Of a DNA stretch of 25,607 nt, positions 1 through 9,394 are shown in pieces. The notes under the pieces were generated by a model. The model did no database searches. It worked only from the letters and a program-made list of their open reading frames with translations, and was not told the DNA's origin. This stretch comes from Thermoflexales bacterium (lineage in GTDB: Bacteria; Chloroflexota; Anaerolineae; Fen-1058), in NCBI GenBank assembly GCA_041740315.1, contig JBGSMF010000026.1:1-25607 (forward strand). The letters are read 5' to 3'. The translations under genes were made by a program, and so were the position numbers. Within the stretch, counting starts at the first letter, position 1. Every line of letters starts with the position of its first letter.

Positions 1-130
1 TGCGTAATCCGGGCCATGCCGGCCGGTGAATCCGGTGGATGTCGGCCACCCATTCCGGGCCATGCCGGCCACCTGTTCCGGCGGCATGCCGGCCACTTTT
101 TGGGTATCGCCGGAATCGATGGCCGCCATG
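1..130. repeat. IS21 left terminal inverted repeat plus multiple sub-terminal repeats (putative IstA binding sites)
   Basis: The motif CCGGGCCATGCCGGCC(ACC) occurs at 9-24 and 55-73. Related copies are GATGTCGGCCACC at 38-50, GGCGGCATGCCGGCCAC at 80-96 and CGCCGGAATCGATGGCCGCC at 110-129. Confidence 0.6.
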
Positions 131-235
131 CTCCGGAATCGGCGAGAGAATTGTTGATCAAATAATAACAAGCGGCGCTGGCTAATCTTATCATTGTGTG
201 GCAAGCTTTGCTTCTGAAAAACACAGGAGGCAAAG

Positions 236-1771
236 ATGTCACAAGAAAGGTTAACCATGCGCAAAATACGCGAAGTACTTCGTTTGAAGTGGGAGTGCGG
301 ACTGAGCGAGCGAGCCATCGCCCGCAGTTGCAGCATTGCCCGCAGCACGGTGGGGGAATACGTGCGCCGGGCTGAGGCGGCCGGGCTGAGTTGGCCGCTT
401 CCGGCAGACTTGGATGAGGCCAGCCTTTTTCGACTCCTCTGCCCAACGCGAGAAGCCTCAAGCTCAAGAATCATTCCATGTCCTGATTGGTCGGTGATCC
501 ACACCGAGTTGCACAAGAAAAGTGTGACGTTGCGTTTGTTGTGGGTGGAGTATCGCGAAGCCCACCCAGGTGGCTATGGCTACAGCCAATTTTGCGAGCA
601 TTATCGCGAGTGGGCCAAGCGGCTCAAGCCCTCGATGCGTATCACTCACATCGGTGGGGAGAAGGCCTTTGACTATGCGGGCCAGACGGTGCCCATCGTC
701 AACCCTGAGACGGGCGAGGTGCGCCAGGCCCAAATCTTTGTGGGAGTGCTGGGGGCCAGTTCGTACACCTACGCCGAGGCGCACTGGAGCCAAGGCTTGC
801 CCAACTGGATTAGCGCCCACGTCCGAATGTTTGCTTTCATAGGTGGGGTGCCAGAGATCATTGTGCCGGACAATCTCAAGGCTGGAGTCACCCATCCCTG
901 CCGCTACGAGCCAGACTTGAATCCCACCTACCACGACCTGGCTCAACACTATGGCGTTGCCATCATTCCAGCCCGTGTCCGCAAACCCAAAGACAAAGCC
1001 AAAGCCGAAGTGGCGGTCCAAGTCGTCGAGCGGTGGATCCTGGCCCGCCTGCGTAACATGACCTTCTTCAGCCTGGCCAGTTTGAATCAGGCCATCCGTG
1101 AACTGCTGCAAGAACTCGACGCGCGCCCGATGCGGCACCTGGGCCGTTCCCGCCGCGAACTGTTTGAGGCGTTGGATCAACCCGCCCTCAAGCCGCTGCC
1201 TGAGCGACCGTACGAATTCGCGCTGTGGAAAAAGGCCAAAGTCAATATTGACTACCACGTCGAGTTCGAGCGGCACTATTACAGCGTTCCCTACACCTTG
1301 AGCCGCCAAACCGTATACGTGCGGGCGACCGAAAGCACCCTCGAAATCTTTTACCAAGGCCAGCGTATCGCCTCTCATCTTCGCTCGACTCTGCCAGGAC
1401 GGCTTTCCACCCAAACCGAGCATATGCCGCCCGCCCATCAACACTATCAAGAGTGGTCGCCTGACCGCTTTACCCGCTGGGCCCAGACCATTGGCCCACA
1501 CACCACCCAGCTCATCCAAGCGGTGCTAGGCTCTCGCAAGCACCCCCAACAGGCCTATCGCTCTTGCCTGGGTATCCTGCACCTCACTCAACGCTACGGC
1601 GAAGAGCGCCTGGAAGCCGCTTGCCGCCGCGCCCTGCCCGCCAGCATTTTCTCCTACAAAGGCCTCAAGAATATCCTGGCCGCCAAGCTCGACCAGGCCG
1701 AACCCGATGAATCATCCAGCGTGATTCCAAGCAGCCACGAAAACATTCGTGGTCAAAACTATTATACCTAA
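236..1771 (+). CDS. istA: IS21-family transposase IstA (N-terminal HTH plus DDE integrase core)
   Basis: 511-aa ORF with RBS CAGGAGG at 220-226, 9 nt before the ATG. The N-terminal HTH (LSERAIARSCSIARSTV) and overall length and architecture are typical of IstA. It is followed 13 nt later by an IstB-like ORF. Confidence 0.9.
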   Translation: MSQERLTMRKIREVLRLKWECGLSERAIARSCSIARSTVGEYVRRAEAAGLSWPLPADLDEASLFRLLCPTREASSSRIIPCPDWSVIHTELHKKSVTLRLLWVEYREAHPGGYGYSQFCEHYREWAKRLKPSMRITHIGGEKAFDYAGQTVPIVNPETGEVRQAQIFVGVLGASSYTYAEAHWSQGLPNWISAHVRMFAFIGGVPEIIVPDNLKAGVTHPCRYEPDLNPTYHDLAQHYGVAIIPARVRKPKDKAKAEVAVQVVERWILARLRNMTFFSLASLNQAIRELLQELDARPMRHLGRSRRELFEALDQPALKPLPERPYEFALWKKAKVNIDYHVEFERHYYSVPYTLSRQTVYVRATESTLEIFYQGQRIASHLRSTLPGRLSTQTEHMPPAHQHYQEWSPDRFTRWAQTIGPHTTQLIQAVLGSRKHPQQAYRSCLGILHLTQRYGEERLEAACRRALPASIFSYKGLKNILAAKLDQAEPDESSSVIPSSHENIRGQNYYT

Positions 1772-1783
1772 GGAGACTCCCTC

Positions 1784-2479
1784 ATGTTGATTCAACCCTT
1801 GCTCGATAAATTGACCCAACTCCGCTTGCCCGCTTTCCGGCTGGCCCTCGAAGAACAACTCCACAATACTCACTATGTTGAGATGTCCTTCGAGGATCGC
1901 CTGGGCTTGCTCATTGATTGTGAATGCACTCATCGTGACAACAAGCGCCTCCATCGCCGCCTCAAGGCCGCCAAGCTCCATCTGCCCGCCACCCTCGAAG
2001 ACCTTGACTTTTCTTCCTCGCGCGGCCCCGACCGCCGTCTCGTCCTCCAGTTAGCCCAAGCCGACTGGATCAATCAGCACCTCAATCTCCTCATCCTCGG
2101 CCCCACCGGCGTCGGAAAAACTTTCCTCTCGTGCGCCCTGGCTCACGCGGCGTGCCGCCACGACTTGTCTGTCCGCTACCATCGCACCTCGCGCCTCTTG
2201 CACCAGGCTACCCTCGCCCACGCTGATGGCTCTTACCCAAAGTTCCTCGATACCCTCGCTCGCTTTCAACTCCTCATCCTCGATGACTGGTTACGCGATC
2301 CCCTCTCGCGCGCCCAGTCTCAAGACCTGCTCGAAATCCTTGACGATCGTTATGCCCGCTCCTCGACCATGCTGGTCTCCCAGGTCCCCATCGCAGACTG
2401 GCACGCCCGTTTCCCAGACTCGAATACAACAGACTGCCACAGATTTGGATCGGTTAATCCGCCAAGTGACAGTCACTGA
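1784..2479 (+). pseudogene. istB: IstB helper ATPase, N-terminal approx 212 codons intact, then disrupted by an insertion (foreign 20-aa tail)
   Basis: Walker A GPTGVGKT and Walker B LLILDD are present. The IstB-like sequence ends at ...ADWHARFPD (codon ending 2419) and then reads into unrelated sequence. The missing IstB C-terminus reappears at 5016-5141. Confidence 0.8.
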
Positions 2480-2727
2480 TCCATCGCATCCTCTGTTCGG
2501 ACGTACTTTCTCCGTTGTGCGCTGCAGCTCTCCACGCGGCCGATCTTACTTGACCATTCAACTTCCAAACGGTCACCATCGATCCGTGCTGCGGTCAGCG
2601 ACTGACTTTGATGGGACAACCAGGCAAGTACCTGCCGGTCAAGACTTGCCGAGAATCTCGGTGCGGACTATCCTTCCTGTTGCTCAATGGGTTCGAACCA
2701 AGTTAGCTGCAACAGAGGAGGTTTACT

Positions 2728-2931
2728 ATGACGCTCTACCCGGCCCTGTCGACCAAGCCGACCCCGTCGTCATCCCTGCCACGGATCAAGGAACAGAACA
2801 ACCCCTTGCCGTCGATTTGGGACAAACTGGATCTACACCATCAACGCCAAGTGGCTCAACATCTAGCCCAACTGATTCGGCGCATCCGGTTACAGGCGCA
2901 TTGCCTGGAGGCAAACAATGAGCAGTCTTGA
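2728..2931 (+). CDS. Possible small ORF (67 aa) overlapping the start of the recombinase gene; function unknown
   Basis: Strong RBS AGAGGAGG 7 nt upstream of the ATG. The stop overlaps the recombinase start by 14 nt. The N-terminal half is low-complexity and Pro/Ser-rich, so this may not be a real gene. Confidence 0.3.
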   Translation: MTLYPALSTKPTPSSSLPRIKEQNNPLPSIWDKLDLHHQRQVAQHLAQLIRRIRLQAHCLEANNEQS

Positions 2932-5014
2932 TATGTTTCCGTCCAAGGTGACTACTGCACATCGGGCGAAACTGGCCTATGTGTATATCCGCCAGTCGTC
3001 GCTGAGTCAGGTAACCCGGCATGCCGAGAGTACAGATCTGCAATATCGCTTGGTTGAGCGGGCTGTTCAACTGGGTTGGCCACGTGAACGAGTCAAGGTC
3101 ATTGATGAAGACTTGGGCAAGTCAGGCGCATCGGCCGAACATCGTCTAGGCTTTCAACATCTCATGGCCGAGATTGGCCTAGGTCATGTTGGACTGGTCT
3201 TGAGCCTGGATGCCTCCCGACTGGCCCGAAACAATAGTGACTGGTATCAACTGCTAGAGTTGTGCTCGCTTTTTTACACTCTCATTGCAGATAGCGAAAG
3301 TCTGTATGACCCATCCGGCTATTCGGATCGGTTGTTGCTGGGGCTCTCGGGGATGATGAGTGAGGCTGAGCTTCACCAACTCAAGCTGCGCTTGCACGCA
3401 GGAGAACGTCACAAGGCTGAACGGGGCGAACTGCGCCAGCCTCTCCCGGTCGGATTGACTCGCTTGCGGAGTGGCGAGGTCACCCTGAATCCTGACGAGG
3501 AAATCCAGTCGTGCATTCTCTTGGTCTTCCAAAAGTTCAAAGAACTGGGAACAGCCGCCGGTGTTGTACACTACTTGCATCGCGAGAATCTGCTTTTGCC
3601 ATCTCGTCCTTTGCGCGGGCCAGCCCCCCACGAGGTGATCTGGCAGCCTGCCCGTAGCAGTGCTGTGTTAGATATCTTGCATAATCCCGCTTATGCCGGC
3701 GCTTATGTTTACGGCCGTCAGGCTCACGACCCGACCCGCCGCAAGCCAGGCCGCCCTCGTACAGGCACTGTTCGTCTTCCCGTTGACAAATGGTCCATTC
3801 TTCTCCATAATAGATATCCAGCGTACATCACCTGGGAAGAGTTCTTGGCTAATCAAGCTCGACTCCAATCCAATCAAAATCGTTACAAAGAGGGCAAGCC
3901 TGGCGCGCCCCGAAAAGGGCAGGCTCTACTACAAGGTATCGTGATCTGCGGCCGTTGTGGGGCACGCATGCGGTTGCGTTATTCGGGCCCCAACGGCGAG
4001 TTCCCGGTCTACGAATGCATCTATGCTTATAGCCAGCAAAGAGGGTCACGCTGCCAAGAGGTACGTGGACTCGGTCTGGATGATGAAGTCGAGCGGCTGG
4101 TCTTGGAAGCGCTAGCACCCGATCAGATCACCATAGCTGTGGCTGCCCTGGAGCAATTGGAACAAGAAAACGCAGCTCTACGCAAACAATCGCAACTTCA
4201 CCTGGAGCGTGCCCAGTACGAAGCTGAACGAGCACATCGCCAGTATGAAGCCGTGGAACCCGAGAATCGGCTGGTAGCTCGGACACTTGAACGGCAGTGG
4301 GAGGACAAGTTACGTGCCGCGGAAAAGGCTGAACAAGATTATCAACTCTGGCTCCAACAACACCGCCTAGAACTCACTGCGACGGATCGGCAAGACATTC
4401 TCGCCCTTGGCCAAGATCTGCCCACGCTCTGGATAGCACCGACGACCAGTTCAGCCGATCGGAAACATATCCTTCGTTTGGTCGTCAAGGAGGTAATCGT
4501 CGATCAACATCGCGCTCGTGGAAAAGTGTGGGTACAGATCAATTGGCAAACTGGTGCAAGCAGCGAACACTGGTACATCCGCCGTGTCTTCAGCTACGAG
4601 GATCATGCCGATCTTGAGCGGCTGGAGATGCGCGTACGTGAAATGCATGCAGAGCAGAAAATGGACAAAGAAATTGCGGCGACCTTGAATGCAGAGGATT
4701 TTCGGACGGCGCGTGGTCAGCTGTTCGATGGCAAAACGGTCTGGTTGCTGCGGCAACAATTGGGGGTACCTTCAGTCAAACCCAACGGCCCGCATCCTAT
4801 ATGTTGGCCGGATGATACTTACTCGGTCGAAGGCGCAGCGGCAGCCATCGGTGTATTTCCAGGTACGATCTACAAATGGCTCAGAGAGGGTCAACTCGAG
4901 GGAGAACAGATGGGCAAAGGCTTACCCTGGAAAATCCCCCTGACCCAGGAACAAATCACTTCTCTACAAGATTATGTCAAGCGAGTCAGGCGTTCCAAAA
5001 AGGAGGTATCATGA
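2918..5014 (+). CDS. Large serine recombinase (resolvase catalytic domain + recombinase domain + zinc-ribbon/coiled-coil) with an extra C-terminal excisionase/AlpA-like HTH
   Basis: RBS GGAGG 6 nt upstream. The N-terminus reads LAYVYIRQSSLSQV...VLSLDASRLARN, a serine-recombinase catalytic motif. A Cys4 zinc ribbon (CGRCGARM...YECIYAYSQQRGSRC) is followed by a long coiled coil. The C-terminal ~60 aa contain an HTH_17-like helix (AAAAIGVFPGTIYKWLREGQL). Confidence 0.9.
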   Translation: MSSLDMFPSKVTTAHRAKLAYVYIRQSSLSQVTRHAESTDLQYRLVERAVQLGWPRERVKVIDEDLGKSGASAEHRLGFQHLMAEIGLGHVGLVLSLDASRLARNNSDWYQLLELCSLFYTLIADSESLYDPSGYSDRLLLGLSGMMSEAELHQLKLRLHAGERHKAERGELRQPLPVGLTRLRSGEVTLNPDEEIQSCILLVFQKFKELGTAAGVVHYLHRENLLLPSRPLRGPAPHEVIWQPARSSAVLDILHNPAYAGAYVYGRQAHDPTRRKPGRPRTGTVRLPVDKWSILLHNRYPAYITWEEFLANQARLQSNQNRYKEGKPGAPRKGQALLQGIVICGRCGARMRLRYSGPNGEFPVYECIYAYSQQRGSRCQEVRGLGLDDEVERLVLEALAPDQITIAVAALEQLEQENAALRKQSQLHLERAQYEAERAHRQYEAVEPENRLVARTLERQWEDKLRAAEKAEQDYQLWLQQHRLELTATDRQDILALGQDLPTLWIAPTTSSADRKHILRLVVKEVIVDQHRARGKVWVQINWQTGASSEHWYIRRVFSYEDHADLERLEMRVREMHAEQKMDKEIAATLNAEDFRTARGQLFDGKTVWLLRQQLGVPSVKPNGPHPICWPDDTYSVEGAAAAIGVFPGTIYKWLREGQLEGEQMGKGLPWKIPLTQEQITSLQDYVKRVRRSKKEVS

Positions 5015-5015
5015 A

Positions 5016-5141
5016 ATCTTCGGCGACCCCACTCTCGGCGATGCCATTCTCGACCGCCTGGTCCATAACGCTTATCGGATCAATCTGAAGGGGGAATCCC
5101 GCCGAAAAACCAAATCCCCCTTGCCCATGTCGGCCACTTGA
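5016..5141 (+). pseudogene. istB: IstB C-terminal fragment displaced by the nested insertion
   Basis: The frame-0 translation is ...IFGDPTLGDAILDRLVHNAYRINLKGESRRKTKSPLPMSAT*. This matches the conserved IstB C-terminal motif (DPTLADAILDRL.H.A..I.L.GES.R). It has no start codon of its own. Confidence 0.75.
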
Positions 5142-5227
5142 TGGTATCATGTCTATGCTAGCGCCGCTTCATCTCAACGAGTGGCCGACATGGCCGGAAC
5201 TCATGGCCGACATCGCCGGAATACGCA
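5141..5227. repeat. IS21 right terminal inverted repeat with sub-terminal repeats
   Basis: GTGGCCGACATGGCCGGAAC (5181-5200) and CATGGCCGACATCGCCGGAATACGCA (5202-5227). The terminal 23 nt are the reverse complement of the left end, with 3 mismatches. Confidence 0.6.
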
Positions 5228-5532
5228 ATCAAGATTGGTTCCGTATTGAGGCCGCAGCAGGCAGTAGGGTTATTGTACAGACGATGAACCTCACTGGAGG
5301 CGCTGATACTATTGTAGAAATTTACGATGCCGCCGGAATGTTATTGCTGGCCACAGATGACAATAGCGGGGATGGACAAGCTTCATATTTGGAATGGCAG
5401 CCGCAGGCCTCAGATACCTATCATATTCGCGTGGTTGCAGCTCCAACAAGTGCGTATGGATGCAACGTTGGTTATGATCTCGCTGTAACACAAAATATTG
5501 CATTGTTCTTGCCGCTTATAGTCCGAGAATAG
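5228..5532 (+). pseudogene. 3' remnant of a gene truncated by the IS insertion: C-terminal pre-peptidase (PPC / bacterial collagenase-type) beta-sandwich domain
   Basis: The reading frame runs straight out of the IS end into ...DWFRIEAAAGSRVIVQTMNLTGGADTIVEIYDAAGMLLLATDDNSGDGQASYLEWQPQASDTYHIRVVAAPTSAYGCNVGYDLAVT. The hydrophobic and Gly pattern (DT.L.LYD..G..LA.DDDSG.G..S.L...GTYYI.V..Y......Y.L.V) is typical of PPC domains found at the C-termini of secreted proteases. The 5' part of the gene would lie upstream of position 1. Confidence 0.6.
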
Positions 5533-5631
5533 TTACGACAGCGCGTTTGCCAACGCAAATCGGTGGGGCCAAAGCGTCGGATAAGCTATCAGTGTGCAAG
5601 CAGCCAGCAAATGCACGATGAGGGATAAAGA

Positions 5632-5844: not shown

Positions 5845-5903
5845 AGCGCGAGCCAAGCCGCTCATGCGAGTGGGCTTGGCTCGCCGTCAATAAGGAGTGA
5901 TTT

Positions 5904-6917
5904 GTGCAAGCAGTCATTTTTCCTGCTCCGAATAGAATTGTCCTGGAACAAGTCGCCGATCCTCGCTGTGAGGCGGATGAGGTCGTCGTGCAAGTAAGCC
6001 AAGCGGGGATTTGCGGCACCGATTTGCACATTTATCGCAACGAGTATAACAGCACCTTCCCACTGATAGCGGGTCACGAATTCACCGGGGAAATTGTCCA
6101 GGTGGGTCAACACGCCAGCCAGTTCCATATTGGTGAACGGGTAGCGGTTGATCCAAACCTTTATTGTGGGCAGTGTTACTTTTGCCGCCAGCAACAAGCC
6201 AATCATTGTCTGAACTGGCAGGGAGTGGGAATTACCCGCCCAGGAGGATTTGCAGAGTATGTGGCCGTGCCGGCTTGCGCGTGTTACTCAGTTCCTGATC
6301 ACTTGACCGATGCGCAGGCGGCCTTTATCGAGCCTCTCTCGTGCGTCATTCATGCTCTGAATCGCTTGCGTGTCTGGCCGGGCAATGACGTACTGATTTT
6401 TGGGGCGGGGCCAATGGGTTTGTTGTTGGTCCAGGCCCTACGTCACAGTGGGGCGTCGCAAGTAGTAGTGGTGGAGAAAGAGCCTAATCGTCGGAGCTTG
6501 GCGCAGCGCATGGGAGCTACTGCCACACTGGCTGCCGATCCATCTCAAATGGAACGCTTGCGGGAACTCTCTCCCTATGGATTTGCCATCGTCATAGATG
6601 CCACGGGGGTGCCGGCGGTTATTGAGCAGGCGCTCTGTTTTCTGAGACCGCGTGGGCAATACTTGCAGTTTGGTGTGGCTCCGCAGGGGGTGACTATCCA
6701 GTGGTCGCCTTATGAGATATTCCGCAATGATTGGACGATCTTGGGCAGTTTTGCGCTTTGTTATACGTTTCAGTCAGCGATAGCGTGGCTTGCGAATGGA
6801 ATAGTGGATATCACGTCGCTGGTCAGTCATACACTTCCGCTGGCCGAGTTCTCTCGCGGCTTTCAAGACTTTGCGGATGGTCGGACATTGAAGGTGCACA
6901 TTCGCCCTAAAGGATGA
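5904..6917 (+). CDS. Zn-dependent medium-chain dehydrogenase/reductase (L-threonine 3-dehydrogenase / sorbitol dehydrogenase-like)
   Basis: GTG start with RBS AAGGAG 7 nt upstream. Catalytic Zn motif [10 protein letters not shown]...[12 protein letters not shown]. Structural Zn site [15 protein letters not shown]. Rossmann motif GAGPMG. Confidence 0.85.
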
Positions 6918-7160
6918 GCGAAAAACTGTTGGCCGGATACGAGAGATGAATCCTCTTCATGAAAACTCTGCCCTGCTCATTTGATTGCCACAATCGCAAC
7001 TTGATGTTGTTACACACTTGCCCATGTTCATTGAGTGATGCCAAAATCCTGTGTTATTCGGTGAGCGGCTAGGCAGGCAGAGATCATGGCCAATGAACCC
7101 CACTGATCACAAGCTTGGCACTGACCCTCGAAATCACCCCAACTTTCAAGTTCATCCGCC

Positions 7161-7604
7161 TTATCTAGAACTTTCTGGCAGATCTATGCCTCGCACGCTG
7201 TCCAGGTGAAGCATTAGGCTCTGGCTGTCCTCTGGCAACTCGCCCTCATCGCTCTCGTCCAGCGAGGGCGCAAACACAAACTCCATACAGCCATCCGGCG
7301 CATCCTCAGAAAGTGGGACAAAAGCCAACGCAAAGAGGTACAGTCCAGCAATGCCTTCTAGAAATTCGTCGGCATCCTCGATCTGGAGCGGCTCGCCGCA
7401 GTCGGGGCAAAGCAAGGGCAGAGCATAGCCATTGGCAAAGACCAGCCTGGTAGGCGCGTCCTCAAGGGCAGGGATAACGTCTACCACTTGTTGCGCGCCG
7501 ATGAGGTCATTTGTGTATTCGATCACGCAGCAGTAATTCTCGCCGATGTCAATCATCGGGCAATTGTGCTCGCCACACGTCACCAGACCATCCAAAAGTG
7601 CCAT
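7161..7604 (-). CDS. Hypothetical acidic protein with Cys pairs (CGEHNCP, CPDCGE)
   Basis: 147-aa ORF with RBS GAAGGA 7 nt upstream on the minus strand. It is divergent from the downstream gene. No recognisable family. Confidence 0.5.
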   Translation of the reverse strand: MALLDGLVTCGEHNCPMIDIGENYCCVIEYTNDLIGAQQVVDVIPALEDAPTRLVFANGYALPLLCPDCGEPLQIEDADEFLEGIAGLYLFALAFVPLSEDAPDGCMEFVFAPSLDESDEGELPEDSQSLMLHLDSVRGIDLPESSR

Positions 7605-7925
7605 AGGCTAGTCCTTCTTTGCTGTGTGTATGCCAAAGCCTGTTGCACGGTCTCTTCCACTTCAAATGCACCCCACAGTGGCAGTGCATCTTCGCGTGGC
7701 TTAGATGGCAACCGCACGTTGGTCAATCGTCACGGGCTACTCCACAACAACCTGATATGCTGCCAGCTATTTTACTCTCATAGCTTACAAGTGGCAACTT
7801 GATTTTGGCAATGCGAGGACACTCGAGTTTAGCGTATAGCCTAGCTCACTTGTGCCATCTTGAACATCTTCCTAATGTGGTAAAATAAATACTAATCGTT
7901 GACCATTCAATCGGAGCAGCGTTCG

Positions 7926-8783
7926 ATGCAAAATCTAGCCAAACAAGATGTCATTGCTATGCGCGAGACTCGTTACCGACGGCGCATGGATATCCGTATC
8001 ACTACGCAAGAACAAGCGCGCGAGTTTGTCAACGACGTAGGCTTTTGCTTTCTCTTCCCTATTAAAGGTGTGGAACTACCTTCCCTTTGGGATGCCATCG
8101 CTGGACGGGTGGTGCCTACATCCTCTTCACACAGCGGCTATGAAATTGATCGCACCTGGGGCTGGAAAGACGAATCACTGGACAAAAAGTGGTGGTACTA
8201 TGGCAAGCTCATCCGCAGCAAGGCCACTTTGACTAGCTTGGATTTGCTAGTACACTTTTACGCATTGAGTGAAAATTATGGGGATTATGAAAACGACTAC
8301 CTGGAAGAATATCGCGCCGGGCGACTTTCCTCCGAGGCTCGATCAATTTACGAGACATTACTCAAGCACGGTGCTCTAGATGCAGTCCGGCTACGCCGCG
8401 AGGCACATATGAGTTCTGACTCGGCCAAGTCTCGTTATGATCGAGCACTGACCGAATTGCAAAAAGAACTCAAGGTTTTGCCCATCGGTATCGCTGAGGT
8501 CGGCGCGTGGCGTTATGCCTTTATCTACGAGCTGTTACCGCGCTGGCTGCCAGAGATACCAGAGAAGGCACGCGCCATTGGCCTGGGCAAGGCCCGGCGC
8601 GCCGTCCTCAATCAATATATGCGCAACGTCATAGCCAGCACGCCGCAAAAAGCTGCACGCGTCTTTGGTTGGTCGTTGGACGAAACGCGCAAAGCAGCCC
8701 AGGCACTGGTAGACGCAGGCCACCTGGAACTGGACGTCAAGGTCAAAGGCATCAGCGAGTTGCAGATGGTGATAAGGTCATGA
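7926..8783 (+). CDS. Hypothetical protein, paralog A (N-terminal ~110-aa unique region plus ~180-aa domain shared with the downstream gene)
   Basis: ATG at 7926 with GGAG 9 nt upstream; an alternative TTG lies at 7899. The C-terminal 180 aa are ~75-80% identical to the next ORF. Possible promoter: TTGAAC at 7860-7865 and extended -10 TGGTAAAAT at 7878-7886. Confidence 0.6.
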   Translation: MQNLAKQDVIAMRETRYRRRMDIRITTQEQAREFVNDVGFCFLFPIKGVELPSLWDAIAGRVVPTSSSHSGYEIDRTWGWKDESLDKKWWYYGKLIRSKATLTSLDLLVHFYALSENYGDYENDYLEEYRAGRLSSEARSIYETLLKHGALDAVRLRREAHMSSDSAKSRYDRALTELQKELKVLPIGIAEVGAWRYAFIYELLPRWLPEIPEKARAIGLGKARRAVLNQYMRNVIASTPQKAARVFGWSLDETRKAAQALVDAGHLELDVKVKGISELQMVIRS

Positions 8784-9394
8784 ATCATTCAGGCAACGGT
8801 CGTCCTCGTCGTGTGCTGGGCAGAACAAGGCGACCAGTGATAACAAGGGTTTTTGCCAATTGCGAGCAGTCGCTCCTGAGCGAAAACTATGGCGATTATG
8901 AACACGACTATATGGAAGAGTACCGCGCCGGCAAATTGAGCGCCGAGGCCAAAGCGATTTATGAAGCGCTGTTGAAAAATGGCGCGTTGGATGCAGTGCG
9001 CCTGCGGCGCGAGGCCCGGATGAGTTCAGAGGCTGCCAAGAGCCGCTACGACAAAGCTCTGACCGAATTGCAGGTTAGCCTCAAGGTGCTGCCCATCGGC
9101 ATTGCCGAGGCCGGGGCATGGCGCTATGCCTTTATCTACGAACTGTTGCCGCGCTGGCTGCCCCAAACGCCCGAAAAGGCGCGCGCCATCGGGCGAGGAC
9201 AGGCCAGGCGCGCCATCCTCAATCAATACCTACGCAACGTGATTGCATCCACTCCTCAAGTGGCCGCCCGCCTCTTTGGCTGGTCGCTGGCTGAAACGCG
9301 CCAGGCCGCCGAAGCGCTGGCAGAAGAAGGACATTTGACATTGGATGTCAAAGTGACAGGCATCAAAGAACGGCAAATAGTGACCCGCCTTTAG
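8780..9394 (+). CDS. Hypothetical protein, paralog B (C-terminal domain duplicate of the upstream gene)
   Basis: ATGA start/stop overlap with paralog A. The shared sequence is LSENYGDYE(H/N)DY(M/L)EEYRAG...RYAFIYELLPRWLP...LNQY(L/M)RNVIASTPQ. The 8507 start in the ORF track is an upstream out-of-context extension. Confidence 0.6.
   Translation: MNHSGNGRPRRVLGRTRRPVITRVFANCEQSLLSENYGDYEHDYMEEYRAGKLSAEAKAIYEALLKNGALDAVRLRREARMSSEAAKSRYDKALTELQVSLKVLPIGIAEAGAWRYAFIYELLPRWLPQTPEKARAIGRGQARRAILNQYLRNVIASTPQVAARLFGWSLAETRQAAEALAEEGHLTLDVKVTGIKERQIVTRL

Follow-up and report, generated by a model that had tools for sequence, protein, structure and literature searches.

A minimal large serine recombinase element within the istB gene of an IS21-family insertion sequence, and its relatives in several phyla

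Introduction

Tn4451/Tn4453 and Tn5397 are clostridial transposons whose transposase is a large serine recombinase (LSR; TnpX and TndX, respectively), with a GA dinucleotide as crossover site at both ends and in the target and with a non-replicating circle as intermediate. In Tn4451, the joint of the circle forms a promoter that switches on expression of the recombinase, and no target duplication arises beyond the 2-bp core. Here a 2608-bp insert is described that consists of an LSR gene and two small overlapping open reading frames (ORFs), orf1 and orf2, and that splits the istB gene of an IS21-family insertion sequence (IS). It is located on contig JBGSMF010000026.1 (assembly GCA_041740315.1) of a Thermoflexales bacterium (Chloroflexota), which was analyzed over its whole length of 25,607 nt and is called the window in the following. 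The insert is very probably an integrated minimal IS-like LSR element whose preferred attachment site is the DNA encoding the IstB motif W-x3-F-G-D-P, and we extend this judgement to the cycle of excision and integration proposed below.

By analogy, the TnpX/TndX transposons appear to be the systems most similar to this element in their way of working. An LSR and a GA crossover dinucleotide are found in both, and a circle and joint-dependent expression are proposed for the element described here. In contrast to the TnpX/TndX transposons, it is 2.6 kb in size, entirely coding and free of cargo genes, it carries two small accessory ORFs, and it targets one conserved gene motif (36 of 42 sites) instead of many loose sites. 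Its joint would complete an ORF and not a promoter, and its hosts are Alphaproteobacteria, Chloroflexota, Acidobacteriota and others, not Firmicutes. A further difference is the DUF4368 domain, for which a Pfam scan of the LSR gave no match at E ≤ 0.01. This C-terminal domain is typical of the multi-targeting LSR clade (Durrant et al., 2022; PMC10083194).

Integrases of the phage type (phiC31, Bxb1, A118, SPbeta SprA) resemble the LSR of the insert in their Resolvase and Recombinase domains and a zinc ribbon with coiled coil, as well as in the use of short attP and attB sites with a 2-bp core, attP being an imperfect palindrome with inner arms that resemble attB. They are distant in sequence, however, and the LSR described here has an additional C-terminal region of ~200 aa with a weak helix-turn-helix (HTH) motif. 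Furthermore, the element is a recombination module alone and inserts in both orientations by way of GA or TC. Phage-type integrases are accompanied by directionality factors, whereas Orf1 and Orf2 are only candidates for such a role. Like IS607, the element is an IS that encodes a serine recombinase, lacks classic terminal inverted repeats and target duplication, and moves via a circle (here proposed). It does not belong to the IS607 family, as the TnpA of IS607 is small, has an N-terminal DNA-binding domain and almost no target specificity and is usually accompanied by TnpB, whereas the insert encodes a 698-aa LSR with an N-terminal catalytic domain, uses a long specific site and has no TnpB.

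Expression that depends on a circle is known from the junction promoters of IS911, IS30 and IS21, and in the 'integration-dependent immunity' of mycobacteriophages attP lies inside the repressor gene. As in these systems, the integrated and the excised state of the element would give different products because of a recombination site within a gene or promoter. Unlike in these systems, integration would here part a ribosome binding site (RBS), an ATG and 9 codons from the body of a small accessory gene.

Mageeney et al. (2020; PMC7192596) noted in passing that IstB_IS21 is disrupted by some integrative elements, which were treated as candidates only, with no account of a family, a mechanism or att sites. 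According to supplementary file 5 of that study, elements of ~4 kb interrupt IstB_IS21 close to position 56 of 178 of the Pfam model in genomes Nmu1 and Mva2. Like the insert, they are integrase-borne and located in istB, but at another site of IstB and with a larger size, and istB may be a recurrent target of several integrase lineages. Neither the text nor the supplements of Durrant et al. (2022) mention IstB. A description of this LSR family was not found in a full-text literature search, although one beyond the searched literature is possible. The chance seems about even that the relatives of the insert represent undescribed, cross-phylum 'serine insertion sequences' that are specialised hyperparasites of IS21. 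Their 2.6-kb circle would lack any non-coding base and would carry three overlapping genes, one of them cut by attP and in most insertions complete only in the circle, and their orientation would be set by a GA/TC flip.

Results and discussion

An IS21-family element with a split istB gene

The features of the insert and of its host IS are listed in Table 1.

Table 1. Features of the LSR element and of the IS21-family element that carries it (window coordinates).
Feature	Position	Strand	Evidence and remarks
Host IS21 element, left part	1-2418	+	Terminus TGCGTAATCC at nt 1; istB 5' part from 1784; collinear with uninterrupted copy L081
istA	236-1771	+	NCBIfam transpos_IS21 (NF033546), 296 bits (cut-off 160)
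istB, N-terminal part, 212 codons	1784-2419	+	Last residues ...ADWHARFPD; Pfam IstB_IS21 positions 2-210, E 2.4e-55; called ORF continues into insert to 2479
attL (B arm, core, P' arm)	2392-2443	+	Core GA 2417-2418; junction comparison over ~45 loci; ~25 bp per arm, estimated
LSR element, 2608 bp	2419-5026	+	From first base after left core to end of right core; absent from L081-L085; homologous elements of 2.52-2.64 kb in L001-L064
orf1 body	2430-2921	+	DUF5372-like SH3/KOW-like barrel plus helix, then disordered tail; TGA 2919-2921 overlaps ATG of LSR gene (ATGA 2918-2921)
orf2, 67 aa	2728-2931	+	+1 frame relative to orf1 tail; GAGGAGG 2715-2721; motif W-x2-L-x5-Q-x-Q-V-A-Q-x-L-A-x-L-I-R-R; ends 11 nt after LSR start codon
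Large serine recombinase, 698 aa	2918-5014	+	Pfam domains; GGAGG 2907-2911; catalytic Ser27 (putative) in invariant R-Q-S; >8000 homologues
attR (P arm, core, B' arm)	5000-5051	+	Core GA 5025-5026; P arm in istB frame reads R-Y-H-E-I-F-G-D (5004-5027)
Proposed RBS and start of orf1	5001-5013	+	AGGAGG 5001-5006, ATG 5011-5013; ATG overlaps LSR stop 5012-5014; usable only with right end joined to left
istB, C-terminal part	5027-5141	+	...PTLGDAILDRLVHNAYRINLKGESRRK...; stop codon 5139-5141; same sequence as C-terminus of P0121
Host IS21 element, right end	5142-5227	+	Terminus ...CCGGAATACGCA at 5227; L081 alignment stops at reconstructed position 2619 = window 5227; inverted repeats I15, I16

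The host was assigned to the IS21 family on the basis of IstA and IstB encoded in tandem, the termini TGCGTAATCC and GGAATACGCA and repeated subterminal motifs. The N-terminal part of IstB scored 207.6 bits with IS21_help_AAA (NF038214; cut-off 200), and its 212 codons are 98% identical to the intact 249-aa protein P0121. Beyond the insert, the peptide encoded by 5001-5141 (ORF 4974-5141) matched Pfam IstB_IS21 positions 197-234 (E 6.5e-10). Removal of the insert yielded a host IS of 2619 bp (window 1-2418 plus 5027-5227) with an IstB of 249 aa, to which full-length 249-aa homologues are up to 98% identical. An uninterrupted copy of this IS was found on contig L081, which carries P0121: the window without 2419-5026 aligned with it gap-free, with 96.3% identity over 2619 bp, and the target site in L081, CGTTTCCCAGACCCCACTCTCGGC, a predicted empty attB, is identical to the reconstructed empty site. 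Four more uninterrupted copies (L082-L085) are 90% identical. An earlier note, made from the window sequence alone, had read the locus as an IS21-family istB gene split by a minimal LSR element and had stated that excision restores an intact, in-frame IstB. The IstA and IstB profiles, the three LSR domains described below and the empty site in L081 bear this out. A natively bipartite IstB was considered as well and was ruled out by the uninterrupted copies of the same IS (L081-L085).

As 37 conserved residues at the C-terminus are missing from the truncated IstB, the host IS has probably lost its function, except where IstB is provided in trans. The inactivation that the earlier note had stated as a fact is thus only probable. 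The window, which is the whole NCBI contig, begins exactly at the IS21 terminus, as would be typical of an assembly that breaks off at a repeat. Elsewhere in the window, neither the IS nor the LSR element occurs a second time, and exact look-ups of the window LSR and IstA matched no record. An ORF with a PPC (pre-peptidase C-terminal) domain (5149-5532, + strand) starts inside the right end of the IS; it is probably a host gene that was truncated by the IS21 insertion.

The insert encodes a large serine recombinase

By every sequence criterion tested the insert encodes an LSR, yet one that is distant from characterised integrases. Three Pfam domains were detected in the order typical of LSRs and all above their cut-offs, namely Resolvase (PF00239, 56.5 bits, aa 20-171), Recombinase (PF07508, 52.6 bits, aa 198-318) and Zn_ribbon_recom (PF13408, 35.6 bits, aa 337-393). 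R25-Q26-S27 is invariant in 19 homologues of 63-79% identity, and Ser27 is the likely nucleophile, judging from its position and from general knowledge of the LSR family. Towards the C-terminus, residues 634-667 resemble weakly, and below the cut-off, an excisionase-type HTH (TIGR01764, 18.7 bits). With NCBIfam XisF the protein scored 77 bits (cut-off 375), and the best solved structure was SPbeta YokA (E 9e-4). No TnpB-like ORF was found within 2419-5026. None of the three ORFs is disrupted in the window copy, and each has an AGGAGG-type site at normal spacing. Within the LSR gene, a sigma-70-like sequence (TTGACA-17-CATAAT, 11 of 12 positions; 3783-3811, + strand) faces the right end; transcription from it in a circle would proceed through orf1, orf2 and the LSR gene.

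Relatives of the element split istB in many genomes

The LSR has more than 8000 database homologues. The best 120 are all of about 698 aa and 64-79% identical, and most of them lie on contigs of 2.5-3.5 kb, which is a signature of a collapsed multi-copy repeat. At least 597 relatives, often in several copies per genome, were obtained from species-representative genomes (one genome per species). Among the relatives listed are Alphaproteobacteria (Bradyrhizobium, Rhizobium, Mesorhizobium, Azospirillum, Sphingomonadaceae), Chloroflexota, Acidobacteriota, Actinomycetota, Gemmatimonadota and others. LSRs with at least 52% identity occur in hundreds of genomes and on 458 plasmids in PLSDB, 274 of which are conjugative; the plasmid-borne relatives are annotated only as 'recombinase family protein' or 'transposase'.

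When the two IstB halves were used as tblastn queries, about 48 of 64 loci with an LSR of at least 52% identity had the N-terminal part, ending at residue 212, on one side and the C-terminal part on the other. The halves flank the element in either orientation, and the IstB proteins concerned are just 22-50% identical to that of the window. In the two closest relatives (79% and 72% LSR identity), istA, truncated istB, a small ORF and the LSR gene are arranged in the same layout. The insertion, which the earlier note had taken for a single event of one IS within another, is real but not isolated: it is one copy of a multi-copy, IS-like family that spans several phyla and has the same istB position as its normal target.

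For the loci with more distant LSRs (L065-L080; 42-44% identity; Planctomycetota, Solirubrobacterales and others), neither flanking IstB halves nor a match to the left-end profile introduced below was found. Several of them have other conserved upstream sequence in common, e.g. CGCACTACTCATGTTGTGGA in L070, L072 and L074, and they are probably sister families with other targets.

Target site, crossover and attachment sites

Right ends were aligned on the LSR stop codon and left ends by an nhmmer profile of the left-end motif (CAGAcTGCC...), as a simple regular expression (CAGACTGCC) had missed half of the family. The 23 nt between the aligned right and left ends were numbered as an attP coordinate. 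At coordinate 11-12, GA (or TC) is common to both junctions in approximately 35 of 42 loci. In the window this GA is present at both junctions, and the empty site contains a single GA; the junctions thus form an attL/attR pair with a shared 2-bp core, as the earlier note had anticipated. The limits proposed there (2420-5027) are equivalent to 2419-5026 because GAC occurs at both junctions, and it is the family comparison that places the crossover on GA. Different crossover positions in the two orientation classes were also considered and were discarded, since the fixed 23-nt coordinate gave one single position.

The reconstructed targets, oriented by GA, have the consensus GA.TGG....gTcTTCGGC-GA-yCC, and 36 of the 42 sites encode IstB W-x3-[FI]-x-D-P in frame. 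Three to four of the 42 lie outside istB. L030 occupies the corresponding position in an IstB of the G-S-E-R-L subgroup, with an intact site that is read on the opposite strand, and in L040 the sequence of that subgroup is found on one arm only.

When the ends of the element are joined, they form an imperfect palindrome of ~52 bp, GGCAT-N11-TTCGGN-GA-NCCGAA-N9-ATGCC. The absence of inverted repeats reported in the earlier note therefore does not hold, as the two ends are the arms of this palindrome around a 2-bp core. In the istB frame the P arm reads like IstB codons, and for this reason the Pfam hit of the C-terminal fragment extends past the junction; the IstB-like peptide YHEIFGD (5007-5027) is not part of the host gene and represents the P arm of attP. 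Elements with core GA relative to the LSR gene are inserted in the same sense as the F-G-D codons and those with core TC in the opposite sense. Because the attP arms are nearly symmetric, a flip of the core would be enough to reverse the orientation of insertion. Identity of P arm and B arm, by which excision and integration would be equivalent, is not claimed here, since the match to the consensus is confined to the inner ~8 nt. The P arm resembles a copy of the istB codons of the W-H/Y-E subgroups (L106, L013).

Two further observations concern individual junctions. In L002, L006, L013, L027, L042 and L054, the core at the junction on the side of the IstB N-terminus is AA instead of GA, always by C-to-T at the CpG of the core and the next base; this could be decay that locks the copies in place or recombination with a target that has an Asn codon. 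L040, a contig of 3270 bp, contains one copy of the element between the C-terminal parts of two IstB types (DPTYADAIL... and GSERLTGALLDRL...), an arrangement which suggests recombination between two inserted copies.

The upstream region codes for two overlapping genes

The ~500 bp upstream of the LSR gene had been described in the earlier note as non-coding DNA with one doubtful ORF of 67 aa. Instead, the region codes for two conserved overlapping genes, orf1 and orf2, the latter being the doubtful ORF. No stop interrupts the orf1 frame between the start of the left-end motif (2430) and the orf1 TGA, a stretch of 142-171 codons in nearly all elements. In the conserved part, pairwise differences by codon position amount to 14026, 12167 and 23973, a coding signature. 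Pfam DUF5372, which occurs in no paper in the full-text search, was matched by six of eight orf1-family members (E 1e-3 to 8.5e-6), two of them reaching 25.0-26.2 bits; with 19.1 bits (E 1.3e-3; threshold 25 bits) the window protein is a borderline or divergent match.

The peptide encoded by orf2 was detected in ~45 loci by tblastn, in the same relative frame in all but three, and has the family motif P-R-L-W-P-x-L-x5-Q-x-Q-L-A-Q-x-L-x2-L-L-x-R. In most of 34 distinct aligned copies an ATG is located 287-311 nt from the left end, in many cases behind a GAGGAGG, and the last 13-25 nt of orf2 overlap the LSR gene. Between nt 300 and the start of the LSR gene, frame 1 is free of stops in 35, frame 2 in 41 and frame 3 in 8 of 43 distinct elements, indicating that both frames 1 and 2 are kept open. 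JGI/ENA annotation of the closest relatives includes orf2 (60-70 aa) and omits orf1. Neither Orf1 nor Orf2 showed similarity to known directionality factors, and no Rfam match to a structured RNA was obtained in 1-5600.

Joining of the ends would complete orf1

A dedicated orf1 start was not found at the left end. At the right end, the sequence AGGAGG-N4-ATGA (5001-5014) is conserved; counted over the fixed 23-nt spacer, its ATG shares the reading frame of orf1. With RBS and ATG at the right end and the body at the left end, full-length orf1 would in most insertions exist only when the ends are joined. At the predicted window joint, AAGGAGGTATCATGAAATCTTCGGC-GA-CTCGAATACAACAGACTGCCACAGA, the first 9 codons of orf1 would be formed by 5011-5026 and 2419-2429, giving an Orf1 of 172 aa (MKSSATRIQQTATD...). 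The circle would then be accounted for by 2097 nt (LSR) plus 519 nt (orf1) minus 8 nt overlap, i.e. 2608 nt, with orf2 nested. The frame of the joint ATG is open in 38 of 39 reconstructed joints, and a stop within 60 nt occurs in none of 33 distinct joints, compared with 16 of 33 in a control frame.

Several observations speak against such a split gene. The motif containing the proposed start (GGCATCATGA) is at the same time a mirrored motif of the attP arms and part of the C-terminal codons of the LSR; as GGYAT (GGTAT in the window, GGCAT in most relatives) belongs to the attP arm, its conservation alone is no proof of a start codon. Some elements have an internal GTG, TTG or ATG shortly before the conserved core. 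In L013 and L106 (1-130), the W-H/Y-E subgroups of IstB (TGG CAT GAG, TGG TAT GAA) supply an ATG exactly at the position of the joint ATG, and orf1 is consequently complete in these integrated copies.

These points can be explained if orf1 is not split at all and integrated copies allow its translation from an internal or a non-canonical start; AGGAGG-ATG would then result only from the palindromic attP and from the codons for the LSR C-terminus. Such a reading would account for the mirroring of GGCAT..TGA on the other attP arm, for the GTG, TTG or ATG located 3-14 codons into the left end of several elements, for the 704 representative orf1-family proteins called by gene finders and for the host-derived ATG in L013 and L106. 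On the other hand, the first in-frame ATG, GTG or TTG inside the element lies downstream of the conserved core start in ~15 elements, and 18 of 32 distinct integrated left junctions have an upstream flank without any in-frame start. The N-termini of the called orf1 homologues are heterogeneous and derived from the flank, and orf1 is uncalled in the closest relatives. The invariably open joint frame and the fixed 23-nt spacing, which keeps the frame, also argue against it. An unsplit orf1 is therefore rather unlikely, though it deserves to be taken seriously, and we lean slightly towards expression of full-length Orf1 from the circle only. A fusion of orf1 to IstB in the integrated state was ruled out, as the frames differ and the orientation varies.

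orf1 and orf2 might also encode one protein by programmed +1 frameshifting, now or ancestrally. In L011 both are fused in one frame, and the two frames are open together over ~190 nt. Since orf2 starts with an ATG of its own, behind a GAGGAGG in the window as well as in many relatives, and since independent pipelines call it as a separate gene, we consider a frameshifted product improbable.

Mobility, joined ends and a proposed cycle

Near-identical copies were found in unrelated IS21 elements of one genome, which points to recent movement of the family. In OY970201.1, three copies agree at 99.8-99.9% identity; two of them, L026 and L054, occupy one IS21 type with flanks 98-100% identical, whereas the third, L027, is inserted in another IstB. 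The copies in CAWJXM are 97.7-99.8% identical, two of them inserted in different IstBs and one outside istB, and those in R. altiplani are 100% identical with unrelated flanks. L035 and L036 are identical 5188-bp composites of IS21 and element at two places in one genome; these could have arisen by hitch-hiking on the IS or by independent site-specific insertion into identical IS copies, and the data fit either equally.

A natural joint was observed in the metagenome locus L094, in which element nt 2458-2635 are followed by the joint AGTCATCGGC-TC-GCCGAACACGA and then by nt 1-2450. The element is 93% identical to that of L014, the joint is exactly as predicted, and orf1 is present at full length including its MKSS start. 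This circular permutation implies an earlier joining of the ends in the predicted way, be it within a circle or within a head-to-tail tandem. In metagenome contigs a strict joint pattern gave no match and a relaxed degenerate pattern gave 17 chance matches and this real one; among the 80 genome loci no joint was found. The permuted copy (5862-8489 of the reverse complement) has both ends at element nt 2450/2458 (LSR aa ~643) and abuts a truncated IstB (aa 143 to 21) and IstA. It could result from tandem insertion into attR, from rearrangement or from chimeric assembly through a circle.

Based on these data the following cycle is proposed. The LSR would cut at the GA of both junctions and join them, producing a 2608-bp circle and a restored istB. 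The circle would carry attP as the ~52-bp imperfect palindrome, and joining would place RBS and ATG in front of the orf1 body, so that in most insertions only a circle or a head-to-tail tandem would encode full-length Orf1. Through the overlap of the orf1 stop with the LSR start, translational coupling should raise LSR synthesis from the circle. The LSR would then recombine attP with attB (TTCGGC-GA-yCC) in another copy of istB, in an orientation relative to istB that is set by GA or TC in the attP core relative to the LSR gene. Orf2 could be produced whether or not the element is integrated, and Orf1 mainly by the circle, which makes them candidates for direction-setting factors; this role is speculative.

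Weighing against this cycle, the junction cores differ by a single base at coordinate 11-12 in 8 loci. Excision by canonical LSRs requires a directionality factor, for which no counterpart was identified here; likewise, no promoter of the element was identified. L094 provides the single joint among 241 million metagenome records, on a contig that is rearranged or possibly chimeric, and it is accordingly counted as supporting evidence for joined ends, not as proof.

A different view of the insertion is that of a regulatory switch ('regulated gene integrity'), in which reversible insertion toggles IS21 transposition for the benefit of the host or the IS. Excision would indeed restore istB precisely, and Mageeney et al. 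(2020; PMC7192596) included IstB_IS21 in a list of Pfam domains that integrative elements disrupt and that are candidates for such regulation. Those elements are ~4 kb in size and located at another IstB position, however, and near-identical multi-copy elements spread over many IS21 types and phyla look selfish. The occasional insertions outside istB furthermore imply that sequence and not function is recognised, and we give a switch little credence. That the insert is a native passenger of the IS21 lineage or an old, fixed and immobile insertion inherited with the IS, its LSR a relic, is very improbable in view of the uninterrupted copies L081-L085, of identical elements in unrelated IS21s and at a few non-istB sites within one genome, and of the intact ORFs and matching junction cores of the window copy, even though no circle was seen for this copy and the composites L035/L036 would fit spread by the IS.

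Significance

The element adds to mobile DNA an LSR-driven family of insertion sequences with a niche in the helper gene of another transposon, a parasite of a parasite. As a target, istB has the properties that no host gene is harmed, that many copies exist, that it is conserved across phyla and that it is often carried on conjugative plasmids. The family probably silences many IS21 copies, especially on rhizobial symbiosis plasmids. With respect to annotation, thousands of 'recombinase family protein' genes beside truncated istB 'pseudogenes' can be read as one element, to which two small genes mostly missed by pipelines can be added.

Mechanistically, the question is raised how an LSR element without a known directionality factor excises and integrates, and whether an Orf1 made only from the circle and an Orf2 that is always available decide between the two. 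For engineering, many diverged LSRs with attP and attB defined to the base pair and with a common core and arm pattern constitute a data set for rules of specificity. Should the LSR prove to work in both directions without a classical directionality factor, or Orf1 and Orf2 to be state-specific factors, hundreds of natural attP/attB pairs on one 20-30-bp target would become available, and with them a new logic for sensing the excised state.

Other features of the contig

Two further features of the contig were noted. An ORF at 20179-22716 (+ strand) encodes a protein of 845 aa with Major Vault Protein shoulder and vault-repeat domains (PF11978, 5e-27; PF17795, 6.5e-9) and is located among genes for FtsH, TopA and MutS2 on this bacterial chromosomal contig. 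At 7899-9394 (+ strand), two adjacent AlkZ-related ORFs form a direct repeat with a spacing of 611 bp and 71-76% identity, and look like tandem paralogues.

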